Assembly: GCA_041651015.1 (NCBI GenBank)
Contig: JBAZKA010000002.1
Coordinates: 6,163-70,162, forward strand
Length of the DNA stretch: 64,000 nt
Origin: Patescibacteria group bacterium
GTDB lineage: Bacteria > Patescibacteriota > Patescibacteriia > Magasanikbacterales > GWA2-37-8
Direction of reading: 5' to 3'
Part shown: one piece after another, positions 5,300-16,715 of the stretch
How the letters are laid out: the number at the start of each line of letters is the position of its first letter
Numbering within the stretch: the first letter of the stretch is position 1
Notes under the pieces: model-generated
Seen by the model: the letters and a program-made list of their open reading frames with translations, nothing else
Databases searched by the model: none
What the model was told of the DNA's origin: nothing
Program-made: the position numbers and the translations under genes

Positions 5300-5560
5300 G
5301 CTGAATGAGCCGCGCTTACAGCGTTGTCGTCTCGTCGCTTCGCGACGTCGCCGAACAACGCTTATACAAAATGTCCGTCGCCCGCTTGCGCGGCTCCGGC
5401 CACATTGTATAAGCGCGGCTCGTTATATGAAATACATGTTTTCCTTTTGGGCTTCGCCCAGCTCTTAAAAAGAATTCAATTTTGTTTTTTTATTAATTAA
5501 TGAGGGGGAATAAGGTGTTTTTTCCGCTGTCGCTACAAAAACGATTTATTTATAAGGGGA
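5300..5560 (+). repeat. island repeat copy 1 (long hairpin gagccgcgcttaca...tgtataagcgcggctc + conserved core gttatatgaNatacatgttttcc...gctcttaaaaagaat...)
   Basis: core about 70-80% identical to 13197-13320 and to the reverse complement of 15955-16090. Confidence 0.7.
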
Positions 5561-5599
5561 AAACGAATACAATAACTTTGCCTAACACGAAAATAGTTT

Positions 5600-7408
5600 A
5601 TGCCAAAAATTAAGGATATACCAAAAATTGATCGCCCAAGAGAAAGGTTTCTGAAAAAAGGAGCTGACGCACTTTCAAAAAGTGATCTTTTGGCAATTCT
5701 TTTAGGTAGTGGAATTAAGGGGAAAAATGTTAGACAACTTTCTGAAAGTATTATTAAAAAATTTGGTAAAAACTTTTTGAACATAACCGTTGATGATCTT
5801 TTAGAAATTTCAGGGATTGGACAAGCAAAAGCCCTCCAAATAGCGTCCGCAATATCATTAGTAAAAAGATTTTACGACGAAAACAAAACTAATGAAATCG
5901 TTATAAAAAATTCTCAAGATGTTTTATCCCTTACTTACGATTTAAGAGATAAGAAAAAAGAACATTTAGTTTGCCTTTATTTAAACGCACGAAATACTTT
6001 ACTAAAAAAAGAAATTGTCAGTATCGGTCTTTTAGATAAGGCATTACTGCATCCGAGAGAAATTTTTTATCCTGCAACCGAATTAAACGCCGCCAGCGTT
6101 ATTTTGGTTCACAATCACCCTTCGGGCGATTCTTCACCAAGCGAAAAAGACAACCAAATCATTGAAAAAATCGTACAAGCTGGTGAAATAATGGGAATAC
6201 CAGTTGTTGATTTCATTATCATTTCTGAAAATAATCATTACAGTTTCTACGAAAAATTAAATAAGCAAAAAGCAAGCGTTGATTATGTTGCAGACGGAAT
6301 ACAAGGCACACTTTTTGCCGTACTTGAAGTTGAAAAACCCGCCTACGAGGTAACGGCTATACAAAAAATTGATAAACCCTATTTCCACTTTTCAAAAACT
6401 CAAAATGATACCTTCCAATTGCAGAATAGAAGATATTTGGGCAATAAATACAAACTGCTCGGATTTATTGAAGATATTGTTGCTGAAAAATGCAACGGAA
6501 TAAAATCATTTTGTGATATTTTTGCGGGTACAGGTGTTGTCGGAGAAAGATTTAATAAGCCAGAAATAAAAATTATTTCGAATGACTTCCTTTTTACAAA
6601 TTATGTTTGCCTAAAAGCGTTCCTTGGTACAAATTCACCTATTCAGAAAATTGCAGATAAAATTGATATTCTCAATAGTTTAAAAACTGATCGAGATAAT
6701 TATTTTTCAAAATACTTTGGTAATACCTATTTTTCGCTAGAAAATGCTAGAAAGATTGGAGCAATCCGTGAAGAAATAGAAAAAATGGCCGAAACGGAAG
6801 AAGAAAAAAAAATTCTCATTTGTTCCTTAATTTATGCAGTTGATAAGGTTGCAAATACAGTCGGACATTATGACGCTTTTCGTAAAGATTTAGATATGCT
6901 ACAGCCATTAAAACTTTTGGCTCCCGATATTGACTACTTAAATAATGGAAATAACGAAATTTACAAAGAAGACGCAAACATCTTGATTAGAAAAATTGCT
7001 TGCGACGTTTTGTACATAGATCCGCCCTATAACTCGCGCCAATATTCAGATGCCTATCATTTACTGGAAAATTTAGCTGAATGGAAAAAACCTAATGTTG
7101 AAGGAATGGCAAAAAAAATGGACCGCTCTCACATAAAAAGTTCCTATTGTCTTAAAAATGCTACACAAGCATTTGAGGACTTGATTAAAAATGCTAATTG
7201 TAAACATATATTATTGTCTTATAATAACACTAGGGATTCAAAGGATGGACGTTCAAATGCCAGAATAAACGATAATGATATTTTACGGATATTAAAAAAT
7301 AAAGGTGAAGTAGAAATTTTTGAAAGAGATTACAAGGCCTTCACTGCTGGAAAAAGCAACGGCGACGGAAACGTCGAAAGAATTTTTTATTGTAATATAA
7401 CAAAATAA
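5600..7408 (+). CDS. fusion protein: N-terminal RadC-like JAB/MPN domain + C-terminal Dam-like (D12, alpha-class) N6-adenine DNA methyltransferase
   Basis: 602 aa. N-terminal half has helix-hairpin-helix and the RadC HNHPSG(x)SPS(x)D motif. C-terminal half has RYLGNKYKLL, FxGxG (DIFAGTGVVG) and DPPYNSRQY in Dam-family order. Confidence 0.75.
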   Translation: MPKIKDIPKIDRPRERFLKKGADALSKSDLLAILLGSGIKGKNVRQLSESIIKKFGKNFLNITVDDLLEISGIGQAKALQIASAISLVKRFYDENKTNEIVIKNSQDVLSLTYDLRDKKKEHLVCLYLNARNTLLKKEIVSIGLLDKALLHPREIFYPATELNAASVILVHNHPSGDSSPSEKDNQIIEKIVQAGEIMGIPVVDFIIISENNHYSFYEKLNKQKASVDYVADGIQGTLFAVLEVEKPAYEVTAIQKIDKPYFHFSKTQNDTFQLQNRRYLGNKYKLLGFIEDIVAEKCNGIKSFCDIFAGTGVVGERFNKPEIKIISNDFLFTNYVCLKAFLGTNSPIQKIADKIDILNSLKTDRDNYFSKYFGNTYFSLENARKIGAIREEIEKMAETEEEKKILICSLIYAVDKVANTVGHYDAFRKDLDMLQPLKLLAPDIDYLNNGNNEIYKEDANILIRKIACDVLYIDPPYNSRQYSDAYHLLENLAEWKKPNVEGMAKKMDRSHIKSSYCLKNATQAFEDLIKNANCKHILLSYNNTRDSKDGRSNARINDNDILRILKNKGEVEIFERDYKAFTAGKSNGDGNVERIFYCNITK

Positions 7409-7410
7409 CT

Positions 7411-9228
7411 ATGAAAAAACCTTGGTCAATTACTACAACACTAAGAAATCCCGAAAGATTGAGAGATTTTTTAATTGTTTTAAGACAACTTGAAAATTGC
7501 AAGTGGGATTTAGAAAGTCAGAAAAAATATCAAATTCTTTTGATAAAAGAGAGGGTTTACGGCTATGGAAGCAATCAATTTTACAATGGATTATCTCAAA
7601 AACAAATTGATTTAATTGACGATCAAACAAAAACAATTACCTTTGAACAAGCCGAAACGATTTTTAATGCTAAAAACTACGAAGATCCTTCAACGAGAGG
7701 GCGGCAATCAATAAATCCTCTTAAAAAATTCGGACTCGCTGTTATTAAAGACGAAAAAATCTGTATAACCAGCTTAGGAAAACTATTTTTAAAAGACGAT
7801 TTTGATCTTGGTGAAATATTTTTTAGAAGTTTTATTAAGTGGCAAATCCCAAATCCTGATAGCGATGACTATAAACTTGAAGATGGATACAATATAGAAC
7901 CATTTGTCGGCGTGCTTCATCTTATTCGGGAAGTAAATGAAAAATCTAGAAAATCAGGAGAAAAAGAAAAAGGAATAAGCAAGGAAGAATTTTCCTTATT
8001 TTGTCCAACCCTTGTTGATTATGAAGATATAGAGCTTTATTCTGAAAAAATTATTGCCCTACGGAAAAAACTTAAAGACAAAACGAAGCAAGAACAAAAA
8101 ACAATCCGCGACAAATATAAAAAAACTTTCGCACGGGAATTTCTTGGAAAATCAAATACTACAGAAATTCAAAAACTCTTAAAAAATCTCAAAGACTACG
8201 GAGATAACGCTATCAGATACTTCCGCCTAACTCGCTATATTTATATACGGGGTGGTGGTTTTTATATTGATCTGGAGCCGAGAAGATCAGTTGAAATCAA
8301 TGCTTTGTTGGATTTTGATAATGCTAAGTCGAAGACCTTTGAGACAAAAGAAAAATACTTAGACTATATTTCTGACATCTCGGAGCCAAAACTACCGTGG
8401 GAAACTAAAGAAAAGCTTACTGAAATTGCCATAAAATTACTTGAAGAAATAAAGTTGTTTGAACGAGAAACAAGGGTAACACCAAAAGTATTTTTGGATT
8501 ATCAAAAATTGGATGGAGATGGATTAAAAAAATTTATCAATGAACTGCGAAACTACCGAAGAGAGCTGCAGGACAAACAAAATCACCAAAAATCACAAGA
8601 TACGGAACAAATTAAATCCTACATTCAAGAACTTGAAAATATTTTTGAATCTGAAGATCGGCCAATACTGCTTGAAAAGTTGTCATCGCTAGGTCTGAAT
8701 GCCCTAAACGATGCATTAAAAATACAACCAAACTATCCAGTTGGTGATGATAACGAGCCAACATTTACGGCACCGGCAAACACGCCAGATATAGAGTGTT
8801 TTTATCAAGGTTTTAATGCTATCTGTGAGGTAACAATGCTAACGGGAAGAGATCAATGGTACAACGAGGGGCAACCAGTGATGAGACATTTAAGAGATTT
8901 TGAGAATAAACATAGCGATAAAACTACATATTGCTTGTTTATTGCTCCCCAAATGCACAGAGATACTATAAACACCTTTTGGACAGCCATAAAATACGAA
9001 TACGAGGGCAACAAACAAAGAATAATCCCTTTATCAATAAACAATTTCGTGTCTCTTTTAAAAATACTCGTACAAATAAAAACCGAGAATAAATTTTTAA
9101 AGCACAGCGAAATTGCTCGCCTATACGATGAAATAATTAATTCATCAAATTCTTTTAGCGATTCCGATGGTTGGCTTAGAAATATTCCCACCGCCATTTC
9201 GTCATGGCAAGAAAGCCTAAATTTTTAA
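7411..9228 (+). CDS. putative Type IIS restriction endonuclease, AlwI-family-like
   Basis: 605 aa. N-terminal W-x-I-T-T-x-R-N-P-E-R pattern recalled from RE_AlwI-family proteins. Located 2 bp after one methyltransferase and overlapping the next. Family assignment is from memory, not a search. Confidence 0.5.
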   Translation: MKKPWSITTTLRNPERLRDFLIVLRQLENCKWDLESQKKYQILLIKERVYGYGSNQFYNGLSQKQIDLIDDQTKTITFEQAETIFNAKNYEDPSTRGRQSINPLKKFGLAVIKDEKICITSLGKLFLKDDFDLGEIFFRSFIKWQIPNPDSDDYKLEDGYNIEPFVGVLHLIREVNEKSRKSGEKEKGISKEEFSLFCPTLVDYEDIELYSEKIIALRKKLKDKTKQEQKTIRDKYKKTFAREFLGKSNTTEIQKLLKNLKDYGDNAIRYFRLTRYIYIRGGGFYIDLEPRRSVEINALLDFDNAKSKTFETKEKYLDYISDISEPKLPWETKEKLTEIAIKLLEEIKLFERETRVTPKVFLDYQKLDGDGLKKFINELRNYRRELQDKQNHQKSQDTEQIKSYIQELENIFESEDRPILLEKLSSLGLNALNDALKIQPNYPVGDDNEPTFTAPANTPDIECFYQGFNAICEVTMLTGRDQWYNEGQPVMRHLRDFENKHSDKTTYCLFIAPQMHRDTINTFWTAIKYEYEGNKQRIIPLSINNFVSLLKILVQIKTENKFLKHSEIARLYDEIINSSNSFSDSDGWLRNIPTAISSWQESLNF

Positions 9229-9230
9229 AT

Positions 9231-10007
9231 ATGGGTATGAAAAAAAATATTATCTACAACGACGATTGCATAAACATACTTAACACGAAGATTGATAAGA
9301 GTTCTATTGATCTTGTCTTTGCCGACCCTCCGTACAATTTATCTGGCAATGGTCTAAAATGGCAGGGCAGCAAAACTGGTGGAGATTGGTATATGGTGAA
9401 TGAGCATTGGGACAAAATGACTGCCCCTGAATATCTACAATTTACCAGAAAATGGATCGGGGCTTGCCATAAAATTTTAAAAGACACAGGATCAATTTAT
9501 ATTGCATGTAGTTACCACAATATCGGTGAGGTAATGATTGTTTTGAAACAATTAGATTTCAAGATAAATAATATTATTACTTGGTACAAAACAAACGCCA
9601 TGCCGAATATGACAAGGAGGGTGTTTACTCACGCAACAGAATTTGTAATTTGGGCTGTTAAAGGTAGTGGATGGACTTTTAATTATAAAGATCTTAAAGA
9701 AATAAACCCTGAAAAACAAAAAGACGGAACCGAAAAACAAATGCGTGATTTTTGGGAATTACCCTTAGTTCAAGGCAAGGAAAGAATACGCGGAAAAGAC
9801 GGCAAAGCGTTACATCCAACTCAAAAACCAGAAGAAATGTTAAAAAGAATCATTTTAGCCAGTTCCAATGAAGGCGATACTGTTTTAGATCCATTTTTAG
9901 GAAGCGGGACAACTGCCGTTGTGGCTAAAAAATATGGTCGCAAGTGGATTGGGATTGAAAAAGAAAAGCAATATTTTAAGATTGCTGAAGAGCGAATAAA
10001 AAAATAA
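9231..10007 (+). CDS. beta-class N4-cytosine/N6-adenine DNA methyltransferase
   Basis: DPPY (FADPPYN) N-terminal and FxGxG (DPFLGSGTT) C-terminal, which is the beta-class order; ATG 9231 chosen to avoid overlap with upstream stop at 9228. Confidence 0.8.
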   Translation: MGMKKNIIYNDDCINILNTKIDKSSIDLVFADPPYNLSGNGLKWQGSKTGGDWYMVNEHWDKMTAPEYLQFTRKWIGACHKILKDTGSIYIACSYHNIGEVMIVLKQLDFKINNIITWYKTNAMPNMTRRVFTHATEFVIWAVKGSGWTFNYKDLKEINPEKQKDGTEKQMRDFWELPLVQGKERIRGKDGKALHPTQKPEEMLKRIILASSNEGDTVLDPFLGSGTTAVVAKKYGRKWIGIEKEKQYFKIAEERIKK

Positions 10008-10011
10008 ATTC

Positions 10012-11154
10012 ATGACCAGCACAAGAGAACAAAATGGCGGTTACTATGCAATTAAGGGTTTTACCTATCAATTTGATAAGTCTCTTTTAGAAATCCTTAA
10101 GAACCAAACGCAGGATGTCGAACTTGAACAAATTCAAGACATTGGGCTAAGCGATTACTATATTCAAGTTAAATACAAAGAAACTCAAAATTACGCCGAT
10201 TCAAAAATCAAACCAGCAGTGTTGCAATTATTAAAATGTTTTCTGGATGATAAAAATAAAAAATTCAAACTATATTGTTATTTTAAAGACAAATCGTCAC
10301 AGACAATCGCTTTAACCGATACCAAGCTTGATGAAATATTAGGTTCAGATAGTAGTGCTTACACGCAAAGTGATAAACAAGCTTTTGTGGGAAATTTCAC
10401 TTTGGAATTTTCAAGTAATTTTGAGAAGCAGTTTAGTGATCTTATAAAACTTATAAAAACCTGTTTTAGTTTAAAGACAGAGGAAGAGGCAACAACATAT
10501 CATGCAATATTTAAAGCAAATTTATTTGGTATAGCCATTAAAAAGAATCCAAAACAAAGAACAATAAATTATAAAAAACTAAAAGAAGTCGCTAACAGCA
10601 ACGAAAAAATAATATTTGATATAGCTTATTGTAAATATCTAAAGATGGAACGATATTTGAAGTATGTAAAAAAAGAGTATTTCACTTTCAAAAAAGTAAA
10701 TACTCCGAGCAAAGAAAGACTTTTTGTTGTTGAGATGGATAATTCAACAAGGGATGGAGATGCCATTCAAATCATAACAAATATAAAAAATCGATACTTC
10801 AAAAAGGATACATCCCCAGCTCCTTATGTTTGTTTATTTGGGATAGACAACGAAAGGATTGCTAATCTCAAACAAAAACTTTGGGACAAGGGGTTGATAT
10901 TTTCTGACGGCACACATTTTGATAGGGATAAATTTAGAATGACTGATCTTATTGCAGACACACATAATAACAATTGTGGTATAACATTTAAGCTTTTGTC
11001 ACTTGAACAATTACCTCTCTTTTTCAAAAAGAAACGACCCGATGAGACTTTTGTATTTTTAACATCTGGCGATGGAGAATGGCGAACAAAAGTTAAAGAA
11101 TTCAAAGAGTTTTATATTGGTCGCACAAAAAATATTACTAAAATAATTCAATAA
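10012..11154 (+). CDS. DUF4297-like (Cap4-type PD-(D/E)xK-like) putative nuclease, partner of HerA ATPase
   Basis: 380 aa. N-terminal GFTYQ motif and D...(I)QVK motif resemble REase-fold QxK variants. Immediately precedes HerA-like gene (4 bp gap). Confidence 0.45.
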   Translation: MTSTREQNGGYYAIKGFTYQFDKSLLEILKNQTQDVELEQIQDIGLSDYYIQVKYKETQNYADSKIKPAVLQLLKCFLDDKNKKFKLYCYFKDKSSQTIALTDTKLDEILGSDSSAYTQSDKQAFVGNFTLEFSSNFEKQFSDLIKLIKTCFSLKTEEEATTYHAIFKANLFGIAIKKNPKQRTINYKKLKEVANSNEKIIFDIAYCKYLKMERYLKYVKKEYFTFKKVNTPSKERLFVVEMDNSTRDGDAIQIITNIKNRYFKKDTSPAPYVCLFGIDNERIANLKQKLWDKGLIFSDGTHFDRDKFRMTDLIADTHNNNCGITFKLLSLEQLPLFFKKKRPDETFVFLTSGDGEWRTKVKEFKEFYIGRTKNITKIIQ

Positions 11155-11158
11155 ATTT

Positions 11159-12892
11159 ATGCCGGAAGTAAAAATTTCAGCTGAAGTTATCTCTGTCTTT
11201 CCAAACAAGGTTAGAATAGCAGTAAGCGATATTGAATCGTTTAAAATAGCTGGGGAACTCTTGGCGGTCGGCTCATATCTCAAAATTTTTGACAACAACG
11301 ACTGTTTTATTGTTGCAATAATAGAAAATTTCTCTATCGTGATGTCTGATCCAGATAAGGAAGGAAAAAGAGATAAGTCCTATATAGTCGAGGCTGTGCC
11401 TCTCGGATTTATCAATTCGAGTGGCGAATTTATTCGAGGTGGCAATAATATTGCAATTCCTCCAAAAACAGTCGAACCAGCTAAAAAAGAAGACATACAA
11501 AAAATATATGACGACATCAAAGATAAAGATCGATTTTGTTTCTCAAAATTAGCTCAAGACACCTCGATAACTGTTCCTGTTGATGGAAATAAATTTTTCA
11601 ATAAACACATCGCCATAGTTGGGTCTACAGGATCCGGTAAATCACATGCTTTGGCAAAAATAATTCAAGAGGCTATAAAAGAAAAAAATATTGGTTATAA
11701 TGGTTTAAATAATTCTCATATAATTATTTTCGACATTCACGATGAATATAAAACTGCGTTTTCTTCAGCCTCATACATTAACGTCGACCAATTAGTGCTC
11801 CCATATTGGCTTATGAACTCGGACGAACTCGAAGAATTGTTTTTAGAATCAGGTGATTTTAATAATTATAATCAAAGCTCAATCCTAAATAGGCTCGTCA
11901 CCGAGAATAAAAAATTAAATAACCCTGGCCAAAAAATCGAGTACGGTAGTCCAGTTGTATTCAAAATAAATGAAATTTTAAACTGTCTAGTTAACTTAAG
12001 CAAAGAGACAAAAAATTATAAAAATCAAGACGAAATTTCTATAAAGGGGGCCTCTAAAACTTTTAGTGGGGATAGTGAAAAATATAAATGTTATTTTGAA
12101 AAAATATTAGAATTTGAAGAACCGAAAGCGCAAAACTTTTCAAAAGGTAGTTTTGCGGATGGAAGTTTGGATAAATTTATCTCTAGATTAAAAAATAAAT
12201 ATTCTGACGCAAGGCTAAAATTTTTATTTGATCCTGCTGTAGAAAGTTTAAAATTTGAAGAAATTCTTCGTCAATTTATTTCTTACAAAACTGGCAAAGA
12301 ATCCAATGTCACAATAATTGATTTAAGTGGTGTCCCCTTTGAAGTATTAAGCATTACAGTATCCCTTATTTCAAGAATTTTGTTTGATTATGCTTATTTT
12401 TATAAAAAAACAAATACTTCATCAATTAACGAAACTCCATTATTGGTGGTATACGAAGAGGCGCATAAATATGTTCCAAAAAATCACTTGGCAAAATTCA
12501 ACGCATCGAGGTTTGCAATAGAGAGAATTGCAAAAGAAGGTAGAAAATATGGAATAACGTCTATAATTGTAAGCCAGAGGCCATCTGAAGTATCTGAAAC
12601 TATATTTTCACAGTGTAGCAATTTCATAGCGATGAGACTAACCAACCCAGAAGATCAAAATTATGTTCGTCGTCTTTTACCAGATACTCTTGGACCACTA
12701 ACAGAATCTTTACCAATACTCCAAGCTGGGGAGGCTCTATTAATTGGCGATTCTGTAGTTATGCCATCACTTGTAAAAATTGACCCATGCACAAATTCAC
12801 CATCATCAAATGATATTAAATATCTTGAAGAGTGGAAGAAAGAATGGAAAGATGTCGCGTTTGATCCAATAATTAAGAAGTGGCAAAAGTAA
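11159..12892 (+). CDS. HerA/FtsK-like (DUF87) ATPase
   Basis: 577 aa. Walker A IAIVGSTGSGKSH, Walker B LLVVYEEAHKY, SIIVSQRPSEV motif; N-terminal HAS-barrel-like region. Confidence 0.75.
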   Translation: MPEVKISAEVISVFPNKVRIAVSDIESFKIAGELLAVGSYLKIFDNNDCFIVAIIENFSIVMSDPDKEGKRDKSYIVEAVPLGFINSSGEFIRGGNNIAIPPKTVEPAKKEDIQKIYDDIKDKDRFCFSKLAQDTSITVPVDGNKFFNKHIAIVGSTGSGKSHALAKIIQEAIKEKNIGYNGLNNSHIIIFDIHDEYKTAFSSASYINVDQLVLPYWLMNSDELEELFLESGDFNNYNQSSILNRLVTENKKLNNPGQKIEYGSPVVFKINEILNCLVNLSKETKNYKNQDEISIKGASKTFSGDSEKYKCYFEKILEFEEPKAQNFSKGSFADGSLDKFISRLKNKYSDARLKFLFDPAVESLKFEEILRQFISYKTGKESNVTIIDLSGVPFEVLSITVSLISRILFDYAYFYKKTNTSSINETPLLVVYEEAHKYVPKNHLAKFNASRFAIERIAKEGRKYGITSIIVSQRPSEVSETIFSQCSNFIAMRLTNPEDQNYVRRLLPDTLGPLTESLPILQAGEALLIGDSVVMPSLVKIDPCTNSPSSNDIKYLEEWKKEWKDVAFDPIIKKWQK

Positions 12893-12959
12893 ATAAAACA
12901 AACAGACAAAAATTCCCTCCCCTTAAACCCCTTCCTTTTTGACTGTTTGTTTGAGAAGA

Positions 12960-13330
12960 AAGAAATAAGGAGTTTTGAATTTTGGGCATTCACCCCTGAC
13001 CCCTCTGCCCAAAATCCAAAACGGAAAAAGAAATTTTAAAATTTTTTAAAACAATTCCGACTGCTGTCGGAAAAAAGAAAAGGAATACATCAGCTAACAA
13101 CGAGTATCCGGTTACGGCTTTCCCCGAAAGCCTCCACCCAAATTTTTCTTTCGCTTCGCTTCAGAAAAACTTCGGATACTCGTAACGTTATATGACATAC
13201 ATGTTTTCCGTTGGGGCTGCCGCCCCGCTCTTAAAAAGAATCCGATTTCGTTTTTTGGTGATTGAGCGAGGGGAAATATAGTGTTTTCTTCGCTACGCTA
13301 CGAAAACCGAATTATTTAATAAAAAATATT
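12960..13330 (+). repeat. island repeat copy 2 (inverted partial core 12960-13030, hairpin aacgagtatccg...cggatactcgt 13088-13197, direct core 13197-13320)
   Basis: aligned by eye to copies 1 and 3. Confidence 0.7.
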
Positions 13331-14137
13331 ATGGCTGACAACTACTACGTTTACGTCTACATTGATCCTCGGAATTACGAGGAATTTTACTATGGAAAAG
13401 GCAAGGGCAACAGAAAAGTAGCGCACCTATATGATGAAAAAGACACAGAAAAAACTAAAATTATAAAAGCCATTCAAAAAGAGGGGCTTGAACCTATAAT
13501 TAAAGTGGTTGCAAAAGGATTATCAGAAAGTGATGCATTTTTAATCGAAAAAACTTTAATTTGGAAACTTGGAAAAAATTTATCAAATATTTCATCGGGT
13601 CATTTTTCAGATAAATTCAGGCCACATAATAGTTACCACCTTAATCTGAATAGTTTTGATTTTGCAAACGGAATTTTTTATGTAAATGTTGGCGAAGGCG
13701 AAACTCGGGCATGGAGAGATTGCCAAAATTTTGGCTTCTTGGCGGCTGGGCAAGGCACAAAGTGGAGCGAACCACTAAAAACATTGAATATCGGTGATAT
13801 TGTCGTGGCATACTTAAAACGAAAGGGATATGTCGGAATTGGTAGGGTAGTCGAAAAAGCCAAGCGGGTACTGGATTTTAAATTTGACGGAAAATCGCTA
13901 AAAACCCAAACTTTAGACAGCACCGATCTCTTTAAAAATTCAGATAATGAGAATACAGAATTTTTGGTCAAAATCGATTGGATTAAAAGCGTGCCGACAA
14001 ATGAAGCGAAGTGGAAAAATAATTCGGGACTATTTACAACACAATTAATTAAGGCATCACTTGAAAACCAGGTAAAAACAATTAATTTTTTAGAAAAAGA
14101 ATTCCATGTTAATTTTACGGACATAATGAACGATTGA
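13331..14137 (+). CDS. GIY-YIG nuclease fused to PUA-like (EVE-type) domain; putative modification-dependent endonuclease
   Basis: N-terminal YVYVYIDP...FYYGKGKGNRK is a GIY-YIG-type motif. C-terminal W-RDCQNFGFL...IGDIVVAYL...GYVGIGRVV resembles the EVE/PUA beta-barrel pattern. Start moved from 13262 to ATG 13331. Confidence 0.55.
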   Translation: MADNYYVYVYIDPRNYEEFYYGKGKGNRKVAHLYDEKDTEKTKIIKAIQKEGLEPIIKVVAKGLSESDAFLIEKTLIWKLGKNLSNISSGHFSDKFRPHNSYHLNLNSFDFANGIFYVNVGEGETRAWRDCQNFGFLAAGQGTKWSEPLKTLNIGDIVVAYLKRKGYVGIGRVVEKAKRVLDFKFDGKSLKTQTLDSTDLFKNSDNENTEFLVKIDWIKSVPTNEAKWKNNSGLFTTQLIKASLENQVKTINFLEKEFHVNFTDIMND

Positions 14138-14265
14138 TATATTTTATAAAATTATTAATTCCGCTAATTTTCAATTCATACTCAAATATACATATTAGTA
14201 AATTTGATTATTGGATTAATTGAAGCCCTTGTTGATAACTTTTTGTTAATAGTATAAAAATGGCT

Positions 14266-14290
14266 AATTTTAGCCATTTTTATAACTACT
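14266..14290. promoter_or_regulatory. palindromic operator-like site AAAAATGGCTAAttttTTAGCCATTTT
   Basis: near-perfect inverted repeat directly upstream of the -35; related GGCTAA..TTAGCC motifs at 15894-15917, 27680-27695 and 27807-27829. Confidence 0.45.
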
Positions 14291-14299
14291 TGACATAAT

Positions 14300-14329
14300 C
14301 AAAAAAATCATTTATAATATCATTATTCC
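14300..14329 (+). promoter_or_regulatory. near-consensus sigma70 promoter (TTGACA-18-TATAAT)
   Basis: TTGACA 14300-14305, TATAAT 14324-14329, about 40 bp upstream of ATG 14371. Confidence 0.6.
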
Positions 14330-14370
14330 TACACAAGTAGTACTTCACACTAAATTAATTAATTTTTCTT

Positions 14371-15096
14371 ATGAATCAAGAAAATAAACAAATAACTCCA
14401 CCATATTTGAGCATGGCAAAACTTGCCAAATTAGTTGAAATCGTGAAATCAAGAAACATGACCCAGGTTAATCCTACTCATTTTATCACTCAAGGATTCA
14501 GTCAGGCAGATGCATACGTTGCAATAAACTCATTGCGCTTCCTGGGTCTAGTAGATGACAACAATAATACCACCGATTTATTTCGTAAATTTCAATTAGT
14601 AGGAGAACAGGGCAAAAAAGGCATGGAGGAAGTAATAAAATCTGCATACTCTAAATTATTTGAATCATTCGCTAATGGGAATCCATACGATGAAGGAAAT
14701 GAAGATAATTTAATAAATGATTTCATGATTCAATATGCTATATCAAAAAGAATCGCGGGACCAGCATCAAAAGCATTTGTTTGGTTGTGCGAACAAGCTG
14801 GACTCAGAGAACAATCCATAAAAATACAAGAAAGAAAAATCCGTGTTACATCAACAAAAAAATTGGCAGATAAAAGTAACAACAAAAACAAACCGCAAGC
14901 TGACACAAAAAATGAAAATCCTACTGGAGTAGCTCTCACTCTTAATGGTGGTATTATCATATCAATACCAACAACGGACATAAGAACATCACAAGCAATT
15001 GCATTGGGCGAACTTAAAAGCGCCGTCGAGGAACTTAATAAGTTTGCATTAAAATATATTGTGGAAACCGAAACTAAAAATAATGATGCTGTATAG
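14371..15096 (+). CDS. hypothetical protein (helical N-terminal domain, Lys/Asn-rich linker, small C-terminal domain)
   Basis: 241 aa with no catalytic motif recognised; first gene of promoter-driven pair. Confidence 0.55.
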   Translation: MNQENKQITPPYLSMAKLAKLVEIVKSRNMTQVNPTHFITQGFSQADAYVAINSLRFLGLVDDNNNTTDLFRKFQLVGEQGKKGMEEVIKSAYSKLFESFANGNPYDEGNEDNLINDFMIQYAISKRIAGPASKAFVWLCEQAGLREQSIKIQERKIRVTSTKKLADKSNNKNKPQADTKNENPTGVALTLNGGIIISIPTTDIRTSQAIALGELKSAVEELNKFALKYIVETETKNNDAV

Positions 15097-15111
15097 CAAA
15101 CTTACCATACT

Positions 15112-15732
15112 ATGAATATCTATCTTGACGAATCATACAATCTCCAAAAAAATAAAGGGAAAATGTTTATAAGCATCAACGGGTTTGCTGTCCTTGATGA
15201 TAAAGTACTCCGCAAACGCTGGAAAATCGTTCGAAAGGATTATTTAAAAATGAAACGACGTATTCACGCGACTGATTCACGCTTTGAGGATCTCCGTGGA
15301 AAAAGTATAAAAATGCTTGGACGTCACGATGTAAATATTCTTTCGATATTCCAACTGACGCAAGAAATATCTCATGACTACTTTGATACAAATGGCATAA
15401 GATTTGATACCGTGTACACTTCTCTTCTTAAAAAACTATTCACTGATTTATCTCTTGGTGAATACAAGCAAGCACGCATAGTTATGGACGCGAGAAAGCA
15501 TAAAGGCGGGATACTTGGGGAAATCATTTTCCAAAAAACTATCGAGGGATTTCTTTCTGATAAATTCCCTTCAACACGCTGTGTGTTAAAACTTACGCCA
15601 TCCTACGCAGACATTCTGATTGAACTTGCAGACTTTGTGTCCAACACATTTTACAAAGAATATCAGCAAGATTCGGAACACATATTCAAGAAACTTGGAT
15701 TTCGGTTGATACAAATCAAAAACCCGCTATAA
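15112..15732 (+). CDS. DUF3800-like protein
   Basis: 206 aa. N-terminal MNIYLDESYN matches the conserved N-terminal D-E motif recalled for DUF3800; sits 15 bp after the upstream gene. Confidence 0.55.
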   Translation: MNIYLDESYNLQKNKGKMFISINGFAVLDDKVLRKRWKIVRKDYLKMKRRIHATDSRFEDLRGKSIKMLGRHDVNILSIFQLTQEISHDYFDTNGIRFDTVYTSLLKKLFTDLSLGEYKQARIVMDARKHKGGILGEIIFQKTIEGFLSDKFPSTRCVLKLTPSYADILIELADFVSNTFYKEYQQDSEHIFKKLGFRLIQIKNPL

Positions 15733-15871
15733 AAGCGGATTTCCGTAAGAGCCTTTTGGGAATGTCTTTGCTTCAACGAGATGTTCCTGAAAGAGAACGC
15801 CCTCCACAAAGCTTTACCCTAAGGACTTATCTTCTAAATACATTATAACATGAATAGCCGGTTTAGTCAAT
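15720..15871 (-). ncRNA. candidate small antisense/convergent transcript (promoter TTGACT-17-TATAAT at 15871-15843 on minus strand; terminator hairpin ccgct-tttat-agcgg + T-run at about 15745-15720)
   Basis: promoter and intrinsic terminator read directly on the minus strand; no ORF; transcript ends at the stop codon of the DUF3800-like gene. Confidence 0.3.
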
Positions 15872-15949
15872 GTACTGTGGATAATTATTAACATTTTGGC
15901 TAATTCAAGCCAAAATTATAGTACACTGGAGACAAAAATTAATGTTTTT

Positions 15950-16165
15950 GGCCGCCGGGCATTCACCCCTTTTGTTCCCCTCTGCCCTGCGCCCAAAAGC
16001 GACAAAAAACGAAATCGGATTCTTTTTAAGAGCCATTTGAATTGACGAAATAACGGAAAACATGTACATCATATAACAGCGTGTATGCGGCTACGGTTCC
16101 CCTATCGGCGAACCTCCGCCCATATCGCTAAGGCGACATCGCATACACGCGAACGTTGTACGAAA
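15950..16165 (-). repeat. island repeat copy 3 (inverted orientation; core 15955-16090, hairpin cgcgtgtatgcg...cgcatacacgc 16090-16160)
   Basis: reverse complement aligns with copies 1 and 2 (gttatatgatgtacatgttttccgtt...gctcttaaaaagaatccgatttcgtttttt). Confidence 0.7.
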
Positions 16166-16715
16166 TAAATTATTTACTAGCCCCACCAGCATTGAAGGGA
16201 GGTAACAATGAAATGGTGGCGAAAAGTGGTAGAAATCTATCACAACATGTTCAATGTGAAGTTCGCTGTCCTTTCGGCCGCCTTTAATGGTCTGGTCGCA
16301 ATGATGGTGAACATGGCACACAGCCCCGAGCAGTACCTGATGGCAGGACTTGCACAGGCGGCCTCAAGCTTCCTGTCAACCGGAGTCACGGCAAGAGTGG
16401 TTCAACACTTTTCGCCCATTCGGTCCGCGCCAGTCTCGTACTTCTTCGGAAGCTTGGTGCCTGCAACCATGACGTTTGTGATGAGCTTGGCAGTTCACCT
16501 TTGGAACAACACTCCAGAGGTTCTGGCAAGTTGTGTGGCTCCGACGGTCATCAGCTACACGACCAGCTACATCACAAACTACATCACCCGGCGTGGCTAC
16601 ATGCTGCCCGGAAACTACAAGGAGGTGCAAAAATGATCCCGCGTCAGCCTCCGAACAGGACTGACGCGGGACACTCACTCAATGAATGTGGGGCTAGTAA
16701 ATAATTTAGCCGATA
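16166..16715 (+). mobile_element. 550-bp unit bounded by perfect 19-bp inverted repeats (AAATTATTTACTAGCCCCA / TGGGGCTAGTAAATAATTT) carrying one GC-rich ORF
   Basis: IRs at 16166-16184 and 16697-16715; interior GC content clearly higher than flanks; 11-bp-stem hairpin after the ORF. Confidence 0.5.
16208..16636 (+). CDS. hypothetical hydrophobic protein (GC-rich, probably foreign)
   Basis: 142 aa; strong SD GGGAGGT 6 nt upstream of ATG; several hydrophobic segments. Confidence 0.5.
   Translation: MKWWRKVVEIYHNMFNVKFAVLSAAFNGLVAMMVNMAHSPEQYLMAGLAQAASSFLSTGVTARVVQHFSPIRSAPVSYFFGSLVPATMTFVMSLAVHLWNNTPEVLASCVAPTVISYTTSYITNYITRRGYMLPGNYKEVQK

Follow-up and report, generated by a model that had tools for sequence, protein, structure and literature searches.

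A probable DUF4297-HerA anti-phage system with a divergent nuclease partner, in a possible cassette array of an uncultivated Patescibacteria genome

A DUF4297-HerA gene pair in a Patescibacteria genome

We analysed a stretch of 64,000 nucleotides (nt) from a Patescibacteria group bacterium (assembly GCA_041651015.1, contig JBAZKA010000002.1, positions 6,163 to 70,162), hereafter called the window, in whose numbering all coordinates without a locus name are given. Two neighbouring genes on its + strand, 4 nt apart, are our main subject: an open reading frame (ORF) for a DUF4297-family nuclease partner of 380 amino acids (aa; 10012..11154, ATG start), and an ORF for an anti-phage-type HerA ATPase of 577 aa (11159..12892, ATG start). 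Sequence comparison and structure prediction together indicate, with a probability that we put at about 0.9, that this pair is a DUF4297-HerA anti-phage system, a divergent but intact member of an already characterised kind: it keeps the same gene order, the fold, the domain layout and every catalytic residue. Complex formation, activity and defence in the host organism we infer by analogy with orthologues. A previous sequence-only reading of the window had placed two genes at 10012-12892, which is exactly where the two ORFs lie, and had proposed a DUF4297-HerA-type antiphage system; the paired PADLOC models and three solved complexes that match the two proteins support that proposal at the level of sequence and predicted fold. 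On deposit, the partner (MFA5127654.1) is a ‘hypothetical protein’ and HerA (MFA5127655.1) is named merely ‘ATP-binding protein’; both, together with the flanking housekeeping proteins, come from a 241-kb contig of a metagenome-assembled genome (MAG) labelled ‘Patescibacteria group bacterium’. Judged from its sequence, the system is real yet unannotated here, and the whole sub-lineage to which the partner belongs is missed by Pfam. The discovery reference for DUF4297-HerA is reportedly the screen of Gao et al. 2020.

The partner as a DUF4297-family nuclease

The PADLOC DUF4297 model PDLC02187, which has no curated cut-off, matches residues 13-337 of the partner at 5.4e-39, and a phmmer search of the PDB with the partner sequence reaches all three of the solved DUF4297-HerA complexes 8XAV, 8ZIQ and 9C1M, through their DUF4297 chains 8xav_G (1.3e-18), 8ziq_A (7e-11, full length) and 9c1m_A (2.4e-8). 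An AlphaFold2 monomer model built with 52 homologues (predicted local distance difference test, pLDDT, 84.5; predicted template-modelling score, pTM, 0.79) points the same way: when it is compared with the PDB by Foldseek, DUF4297 chains (from 8ZGI, 9C1M, 8ZIQ, 8ZIR, 8ZIT and 8XAV) account for 20 of the top 21 matches, with Cap4 (6vm6_F, 5e-5) at rank 17. The whole-chain TM-score against DUF4297 chains is just ~0.44, because the two domains of the partner are hinged. The sequence-only reading had arrived at a DUF4297-like protein of restriction-endonuclease (REase) fold from two N-terminal motifs, GFTYQ and D...QVK; both are present, as G16-F-T-Y-Q20 and as D43 with Q52-V-K54, and the PADLOC model, the solved chains, the predicted fold and the catalytic residues all agree with its assignment. 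It had also named two findings that would have spoken against it, a lack of any REase or DUF4297 similarity and a partner of Sir2 type; we looked for both and found neither.

Alignment and model place a Cap4-like PD-(D/E)xK nuclease domain at the N-terminus of the partner (~aa 1-130; 10012..10401, +), in which the α-β-β-β-α-β order can be seen. Its catalytic codons, all on the + strand, are those of E39 (10126-10128), D43 (10138-10140), Q52 (10165-10167), K54 (10171-10173) and E57 (10180-10182). They can be matched to residues studied in orthologues: D43, Q52 and K54 align with D40, Q53 and K55 of the 8XAV protein, whose triple mutation to alanine (D40A/Q53A/K55A) abolished both nuclease activity and defence (An et al.), and in the Bacillus orthologue (Rish et al.) the counterparts of D43 and E57 are D41 and E59. 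In the 52-sequence alignment of the partner, G16, Q20, E39, D43, Q52 and K54 are fixed. We also compared 68 partner and 65 HerA orthologues, all from genomes other than that of the window: Q52, K54 and E57 are found in 68/68 partner orthologues, E39 and D43 in 67 (one is gapped), and G16 and Q20 in 66, the exceptions again being gapped.

The C-terminal oligomerisation domain (CTD, or ‘UFO’ domain; ~aa 231-380; 10702..11151, +) was delimited by superposition. The model of this domain fits the CTD-only chain 8xav_M with a TM-score (TMt) of 0.84 and a root mean square deviation of 2.4 Å, and 8xaw_Q likewise (2.4-2.6 Å). A short motif stands out within it, D299-G300-x-x-F303: D299 and G300 are present in 68/68 orthologues and F303 in 66, with Y in the other 2. 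In the model, the D299-G300 pair sits in a loop after a CTD helix. Bearing in mind that loops of the partner CTD contact the HAS domain of HerA in the solved complex (An et al.), we infer only that the D299-G300 loop could be one of them.

The HerA ATPase and its nearest relatives

The assignment of the 577-aa protein to HerA, which the sequence-only reading had made from its motifs, is borne out by family models: Pfam DUF87, the HerA central domain, matches at 1e-35, and the PADLOC HerA model PDLC02188 matches end to end at 8e-251. The best match in the PDB is 8xau_A (E=2.4e-187; residues 6-577; 55% identity), the HerA chain of the DUF4297-HerA complex from E. coli, and the next-best, 9c1m_M and 8ziq_M, also belong to DUF4297-HerA complexes. 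The alignment to 8xau_A takes in the C-terminal hook (at the end of the gene 11159..12892, +), the mark that distinguishes DUF4297-associated from Sir2-associated HerA. Walker A is present as GSTGSGKS (aa 155-162; 11621-11644, +), and alignment to published residues locates the Walker B pair E433/E434 (12455-12460, +) and the arginine finger R462/K463 (12542-12547, +). In the orthologue, K157, S158, E426, E427, R455 and K456 bind ATP and Mg or form the arginine finger that acts in trans (An et al.), and mutation of K157 abolishes activity or defence; their equivalents here, K161, S162, E433, E434, R462 and K463, show no variation among the 65 HerA orthologues.

These comparisons also bear on whether the pair might be a HerA-NurA-type end-resection module, acting in repair, or a Sir2-HerA-type system. 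The HerA does match the archaeal repair HerA 4d2i_A (2e-29) and the Sir2-HerA entry 8j4u_M (1e-26); however, DUF4297-associated HerA matches better by more than 100 orders of magnitude. Moreover, Pfam, PADLOC and NCBIfam give no NurA or SIR2 match for the partner, its fold agrees with that of DUF4297 chains, and its neighbours are defence genes. We regard either identity as next to impossible, and retain DUF4297-HerA.

Conservation of the pairing among relatives

A scan that took one genome per species recovered 74 loci with a relative of the partner, spanning Patescibacteria, Bacillota, Bacteroidota, Proteobacteria, Cyanobacteria-related lineages, Planctomycetota and one Methanosarcinales MAG. 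In 70 of the 74, herA lies directly downstream on the same strand, which argues that the pairing of the two genes is no chance juxtaposition; contig ends truncate three of the remaining four loci, and the fourth is a fragment. Identity to the window protein is 46-75% for HerA (median 55%) and 25-84% for the partner (median 31%), and the two values are correlated across loci (r = 0.85). The nuclease partner apparently evolves much faster than HerA, and its fastest-evolving part is the CTD, with a median identity of 22% against 44% for the nuclease domain.

Might the pair be an inactive relic, carried along in the cassette described below? Degraded copies do exist elsewhere (fragments at loci L071 and L077), and the R end of the pair's own cassette is degenerate. 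Nevertheless, both ORFs are full length, all catalytic and motif residues are intact, and close relatives of the partner, at 74-88% identity, have the same length. We consider a relic very unlikely and an intact system by far the better account.

The closest genome-resolved relative, L006 (on the same contig as L001), is in a MAG labelled Gammaproteobacteria, and its partner is 80% identical to that of the window. There, a 249-aa PD-(D/E)xK gene (PDDEXK_1; L006:12801-13550, +) begins 3 nt after herA and may encode a third component of that system. HerA is shorter, at 542-547 aa, in L006, L007, L009 and L017.

Points that weigh against the assignment

Several observations count against membership of the pair in the DUF4297-HerA family or against the function that we ascribe to it. 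The partner is very divergent, at ~22% identity to the solved orthologues; Pfam hmmscan returns nothing for it at E<=0.1, DUF4297 included; and it scores 165.6 bits with NCBIfam NF042945 (DUF4297_antiphage), for which the cut-off is 300. HerA, at 842.3 bits with NCBIfam NF042944 (‘anti-phage-associated helicase HerA’), is itself 8 bits short of the equivalog cut-off of 850. Another discrepancy concerns K61, reported as catalytic in the Bacillus orthologue (Rish et al.), which is Q59 in the window partner. The host is an uncultivated Patescibacteria MAG.

We take the failure of the partner to reach the Pfam and NCBIfam thresholds as the sign of a divergent sub-lineage; not one of 84 partner homologues in a large protein collection carries a precomputed Pfam domain. 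The HHpred comparison of the 380-aa protein with PDB/Pfam that had been proposed along with the sequence-only reading might have given an apparent negative, since plain Pfam hmmscan is blank for this protein. We do not count the Pfam blank against membership, because the PADLOC, PDB and fold evidence agree. As for K61, its position varies (Q/T/A/S/K) across the 68 orthologues and is T in the 8XAV protein; in view of this variation and of Q59 here, we reject it as a family-defining catalytic residue.

Predicted mechanism

The proposed mechanism and phenotype are drawn from studies of orthologues and a review of them (PMC11291478; bioRxiv 10.1101/2024.10.24.620088; PMC12198126). In those studies HerA by itself adopts a split spiral with almost no activity, and the isolated partner shows little nuclease activity or none. 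Combined, the two build an octadecamer of ~1 MDa, with twelve partners stacked in two layers on a planar hexamer of HerA. On assembly the arginine finger changes position, and the nuclease domains of the top layer dimerise into a clamp that cleaves double-stranded DNA (dsDNA) non-specifically. Defence in vivo needs both the ATPase and the nuclease. Infected cells that carry the system lose their DNA, and protection breaks down when the multiplicity of infection is high, the behaviour of abortive infection.

By analogy, we propose that the window HerA would assemble as a ring of six subunits, and that the 380-aa protein would stack on this ring as twelve copies, in two layers and through the CTDs. 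This assembly would flatten HerA into an active ATPase and dsDNA translocase, and it would join the Cap4-like nuclease domains of the top layer as clamp-shaped dimers, so that non-specific cleavage of dsDNA would be switched on; phage and host DNA would both be degraded, with abortive infection as the outcome.

Linkage to restriction-modification genes

Upstream of the pair, Pfam and PADLOC identify a three-gene restriction-modification (R-M) module of the AlwI type (type IIS/nicking; 5600..10007, +): a RadC(JAB)-D12 methyltransferase fusion (5600-7408, +), an AlwI-family endonuclease (7411-9228, +), whose best PADLOC model is ‘type II nicking endonuclease’ (1e-134), and an N6_N4 methyltransferase (9204/9237-10007, +). 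The first of these is a single 602-aa ORF, in which a UPF0758 N-terminal domain and a RadC-like JAB domain are fused to a D12-class N6-adenine methyltransferase. The methyltransferases on either side of the endonuclease belong to different classes, which fits the expectation for an asymmetric (type IIS/nicking) site. For the genes at 7411-9228 and 9204-10007, proteins of >=90% identity are found in Moranbacteria and Elusimicrobia MAGs.

Between 5600 and 10012 the gaps are 2 nt, ~8 nt (a 25-nt overlap if the start at 9204 is used) and then 4 nt to the partner gene, and no terminator-like site was found on the + strand between 6100 and 13366. With gaps this short and no such site intervening, the R-M trio and the DUF4297-HerA pair look like one five-gene operon in which the pair comes last.

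We surveyed the 69 loci that hold both genes (68 related loci and the window) for an R-M gene on the same strand no more than 70 nt upstream. By BLAST, 16 of the 69 have such a tightly placed, co-directional gene. The BLAST class ‘HsdS’ was contaminated by RhuM-family proteins and was reset by Pfam, and the proximity counts are approximate; a Pfam-verified R-M gene lies directly upstream in 14 of the 69 loci, the window included, or in 11 if ambiguous ResIII helicases (L053, L056 and L064) are left aside. The others, all on the same strand as the pair, are a methyltransferase, type I HsdR (L006 and L025), HsdS (L028, L034, L036, L039 and L071) and type IIG Eco57I/MmeI-like enzymes (L031, L061 and L063). 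The pair is appended 3-4 nt after hsdR in L006/L025, and after the type IIG enzymes in L061/L063. In eight loci (L036, L039, L062, L040, L042, L028, L037 and L071), it lies inside a type I operon in the order hsdM-hsdS-[DUF4297-HerA]-rhuM-hsdR; the hosts of these embedded pairs are Deltaproteobacteria, Scalindua, Methanosarcinales, Melainabacteria-like and other MAGs. The PADLOC paper of 2021 is not the source of the system, nor of an ‘embedding’ observation, as it makes no mention of it. A limited literature search found no paper on linkage between DUF4297-HerA and R-M.

The linkage raises the alternative that the pair is not autonomous and serves as an accessory of the upstream R-M system, for example as a motor-nuclease that finishes DNA nicked or cut by the AlwI-type enzyme, with methylation shielding host DNA indirectly. 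The spacing of 4 nt behind an R-M methyltransferase, with no terminator-like site between, speaks for such an accessory, as do the tight upstream R-M genes and the eight embedded pairs elsewhere. On the other hand, an orthologous system moved to E. coli defends by itself, and a purified orthologous complex cuts circular plasmid DNA without any R-M partner. Furthermore, no R-M gene was detected within 2.5 kb in 49 of the 69 loci, and the R-M partners that do occur are of unrelated types, for which co-location in a defence hot-spot is a better fit than specific interaction. We judge an accessory role unlikely, and prefer an autonomous DUF4297-HerA system. Since there is no background rate, and since 49 of 69 loci have no R-M gene within 2.5 kb, we read the linkage as insertion into a known variable slot of R-M operons, and not as proof of functional coupling.

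The arrangement nevertheless has a bearing on expression. An et al. suggest that the toxic complex might be expressed only upon infection; the gene order of the R-M-linked copies suggests that these are transcribed together with constitutive R-M genes, and such co-transcription would argue against expression that is purely infection-induced.

A tandem arrangement of two cassettes in the window

The five genes (5600-12892, + strand ORFs) are enclosed by copies of a ~100-nt element. There are three copies in the window, 5422-5528 (+), 13187-13294 (+) and 16003-16077 (-), where none is expected by chance. The copies delimit two co-oriented cassettes in tandem (5345-16166), within a region (~5 to 16 kb) of low GC, 30-37%, compared with ~45% elsewhere in the window. 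Cassette 1 is preceded by a hairpin module (~5345-5421), found by hairpin search, and opens with an L-type (5') end at 5422..5528 (+; repeat family, nhmmer 2e-16). It closes, behind the DUF4297-HerA pair, with a degenerate R-type (3') end at 12973..13098 (+), recognised by alignment to the R ends of the array end, L093 and L182, that finishes in an R''-like box, TAAC. An attC-like structured module follows at 13099..13186 (+), with arms AACGAGTATCCGG and CGGATACTCGTAAC and a fold z-score of -6.7. Cassette 2 then begins with its own L end (13187-13294, +; repeat family), contains three genes (13331-15732, or from 13262; + strand ORFs) and ends in an R-type end with an inverted core (15975-16077, -; repeat family and alignment), a terminal attC-like module (16078-16154, -; fold and alignment) and an R'-like box, GTTGTACGAAAT (16155-16166, -), after which the alignment shows no further similarity. 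No tyrosine recombinase is encoded in the 64-kb window.

The genes of cassette 2 are themselves candidates for defence: a fusion of a GIY-YIG nuclease domain (PD-T4-3-like) with a PDC-S11-like C-terminal domain, a DUF5343/PDC-M34A protein and a DUF3800 protein. The same cassette holds a candidate small RNA of ~100 nt with no plausible ORF (15712-15836, -), with a near-consensus promoter, TTGACT-17-(TG)-TATAAT, at 15870-15842, an intrinsic terminator at 15745-15717 and a modest fold z-score of -2.1. We considered signal recognition particle RNA and other known families for this RNA and set them aside: there is no Rfam match at gathering, and at E<=10 just chance-level leaders appear. Directly beyond the array end, a 30-nt inverted repeat (16166-16195 / 16679-16708, 90% complementary) brackets the gene of a 142-aa predicted membrane protein (16208-16636).

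The element in metagenomes and an integron-like reading

A 28-nt core pattern of the element, in which 25 bases are specified, occurs in at least 118 metagenome contigs (among them L080-L197); the element loci compared number 119. So far, the element is on two contigs assigned to Patescibacteria and at least 116 other metagenome contigs, and nhmmer found none in the other 74 DUF4297-HerA loci. Its two end types, L and R, each ~100 nt, have a core of ~75 nt in common, in inverted orientation. The L end leads into the first start codon, and the R end holds a covarying stem with a conserved loop. In 12 of the contigs, an L...R pair encloses 1.4-6.2 kb (for example L117:100-1519, L091:2551-6885, L110:3556-8600 and L143:2314-7778). 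Genes point from L toward R: going inward from an L end, the first ORF shares its orientation in 57/60 cases, and going inward from an R end, the first ORF points toward that end in 40/47. The cargo is mostly defence, including Mrr-like nucleases, a Gabija-like pair of OLD-ATPase and UvrD, type I and type IIG R-M, and a 1705-aa helicase-nuclease; Fic/SoFic proteins account for 9-10 of 126 proteins, and there is non-defence cargo too (carbamoyltransferase, DsbD and Crp genes). One Mrr-like cargo protein (L117:194-1435, +) clusters at >=90% identity with a protein of Desulfurella amilsii, which points to recent transfer of cargo between distant phyla.

A further feature of the element is a structured module outside each R end (median length 96.5 nt, median fold z -5.25), in which a ...TAAC box is followed by a 5' arm, a variable centre with CCTCCRCCCAWAT, a complementary 3' arm and a GTTRRRY-like box. 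Twenty modules have 17 distinct arm sequences (median perfect arm run, 10.5 bp), and their consensus is a three-helix structure with compensatory changes at 15/24 pairs. The boxes (...TAAC / GTTATAT, GTTAGGT, GTTAAGT) are a partial fit to the attC consensus, RYYYAAC / GTTRRRY. A tyrosine recombinase gene is found in 11 of the 119 loci, and in five of them it lies just outside the L end and is transcribed divergently: L132:571-1383(-), L167:322-1191(-), L174:3131-3949(-), L166:1186-2055(+) and L100:13961-14989(-). These recombinases, of 257-323 aa (median 272), have the XerA/integron-integrase model NF040815 as their best NCBIfam match; they match IntI models in two stretches, and the equivalent of ~positions 191-250 of IntI1, the IntI-specific insertion, is missing. 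One copy is MBU2543387.1, from a Patescibacteria MAG.

The best reading of the array, which we hold tentatively and at somewhat less than even odds, is that the R-M and DUF4297-HerA block is a mobile multi-gene cassette of an undescribed, integron-like recombination platform. Its enzyme would be an XerA-like tyrosine recombinase that lacks the IntI insertion. Cassettes of 1.4-7.5 kb would be reshuffled at composite sites of ~300 nt, each made up of an R end, a three-helix attC-like module and an L end, and bacteria with reduced genomes would thereby hold an exchangeable store of defence systems. Several points count against such a platform: the recombinase of the related loci lacks the insertion specific to IntI, we recovered no excision product or cassette polymorphism, and a search for an empty site or alternative cassette in a related strain, by way of identical flanking proteins, gave nothing usable. 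We found no literature on such cassette arrays in Patescibacteria.

Other explanations of the repeats were considered. Terminal inverted repeats of a DDE transposon or of a mobile insertion cassette do not fit: no transposase lies inside any of the 12 pairs, no gene family is present in more than 12 of the 119 loci, and there is no target-site duplication. A leader peptide was also rejected, since substitutions in the GTTTYC...GRAAAC stem are compensatory in the nucleotides and non-conservative in the peptide. The structured elements may instead have a regulatory or insulator role.

Implications

The gene pair is ordinary in kind, and what makes it most interesting is its genomic packaging. 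Should the cassette array prove to be a real recombination platform, reduced-genome bacteria would have a new route for the exchange of multi-gene defence systems. The pair adds an uncultivated Patescibacteria genome to the range of a defence system whose structure is well understood, and it can serve annotation and help to define which residues are invariant in the family. Censuses by Pfam DUF4297 or NCBIfam models will miss this partner sub-lineage, which the PADLOC model detects, and the comparative set tells family-defining residues (E39, D43, Q52, K54, E57 and D299-G300-x-x-F303) from lineage-specific ones such as Bacillus K61. The repeated fusion to R-M operons bears on how a constitutively active, toxic complex is silenced and triggered.

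Comparison with known systems

The solved DUF4297-HerA systems (8XAU-8XAY; 8ZIQ/8ZIR/8ZIT/8ZGI; 9C1M/9C1N/9C5X) have the same gene order, with the DUF4297 gene directly upstream of herA. The window pair differs from them in the divergence of its partner (~22% identity, no Pfam match, below the NCBIfam cut-off), in its apparent co-operonic arrangement with AlwI-type R-M genes inside a putative integron-like cassette, and in its host, a Patescibacteria MAG. Sir2-HerA (Nezha) resembles DUF4297-HerA in its supramolecular assembly, in which a HerA hexamer serves as the scaffold and the activator of a 12-mer effector. Its effector, however, is a SIR2 NADase and not a nuclease, and its HerA is without the C-terminal hook (PMC12198126). 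The effectors Cap4 (of the cyclic oligonucleotide-based anti-phage signalling system, CBASS) and Avs3 share the PD-(D/E)xK ‘DUF4297/Cap4’ fold and are activated by induced dimerisation, but they are switched on by a SAVED domain with cyclic oligonucleotides or by STAND/NLR oligomerisation, and not by HerA; Pfam and PADLOC find no SAVED or NTPase domain in the window partner and no SAVED domain or cyclase in its neighbours, and the resemblance of the partner to Cap4 is confined to the nuclease domain. The HerA-NurA end-resection complex likewise combines a HerA dsDNA translocase with a nuclease, which in that case is a NurA dimer acting in repair.

As for the array, the attC sites of integrons are imperfect palindromes of ~57-141 nt, conserved in structure and variable in sequence, with complementary R''/R' boxes. 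Integron cassettes that encode phage-defence systems are already known (bioRxiv 10.1101/2024.07.02.601719). The array and its relatives are like integrons in that co-oriented cassettes are separated by structured, sequence-variable palindromic sites whose complementary boxes (...TAAC / GTTRRRY-like) fit the attC consensus in part, that a divergently transcribed tyrosine recombinase stands at one end in some element loci, and that the cargo includes defence genes. They are unlike integrons in that their recombinase is XerA-like and has no IntI-specific insertion, that a cassette holds up to five genes and 7.5 kb, and that each cassette has conserved ~100-nt L and R ends with an inverted core of ~75 nt.

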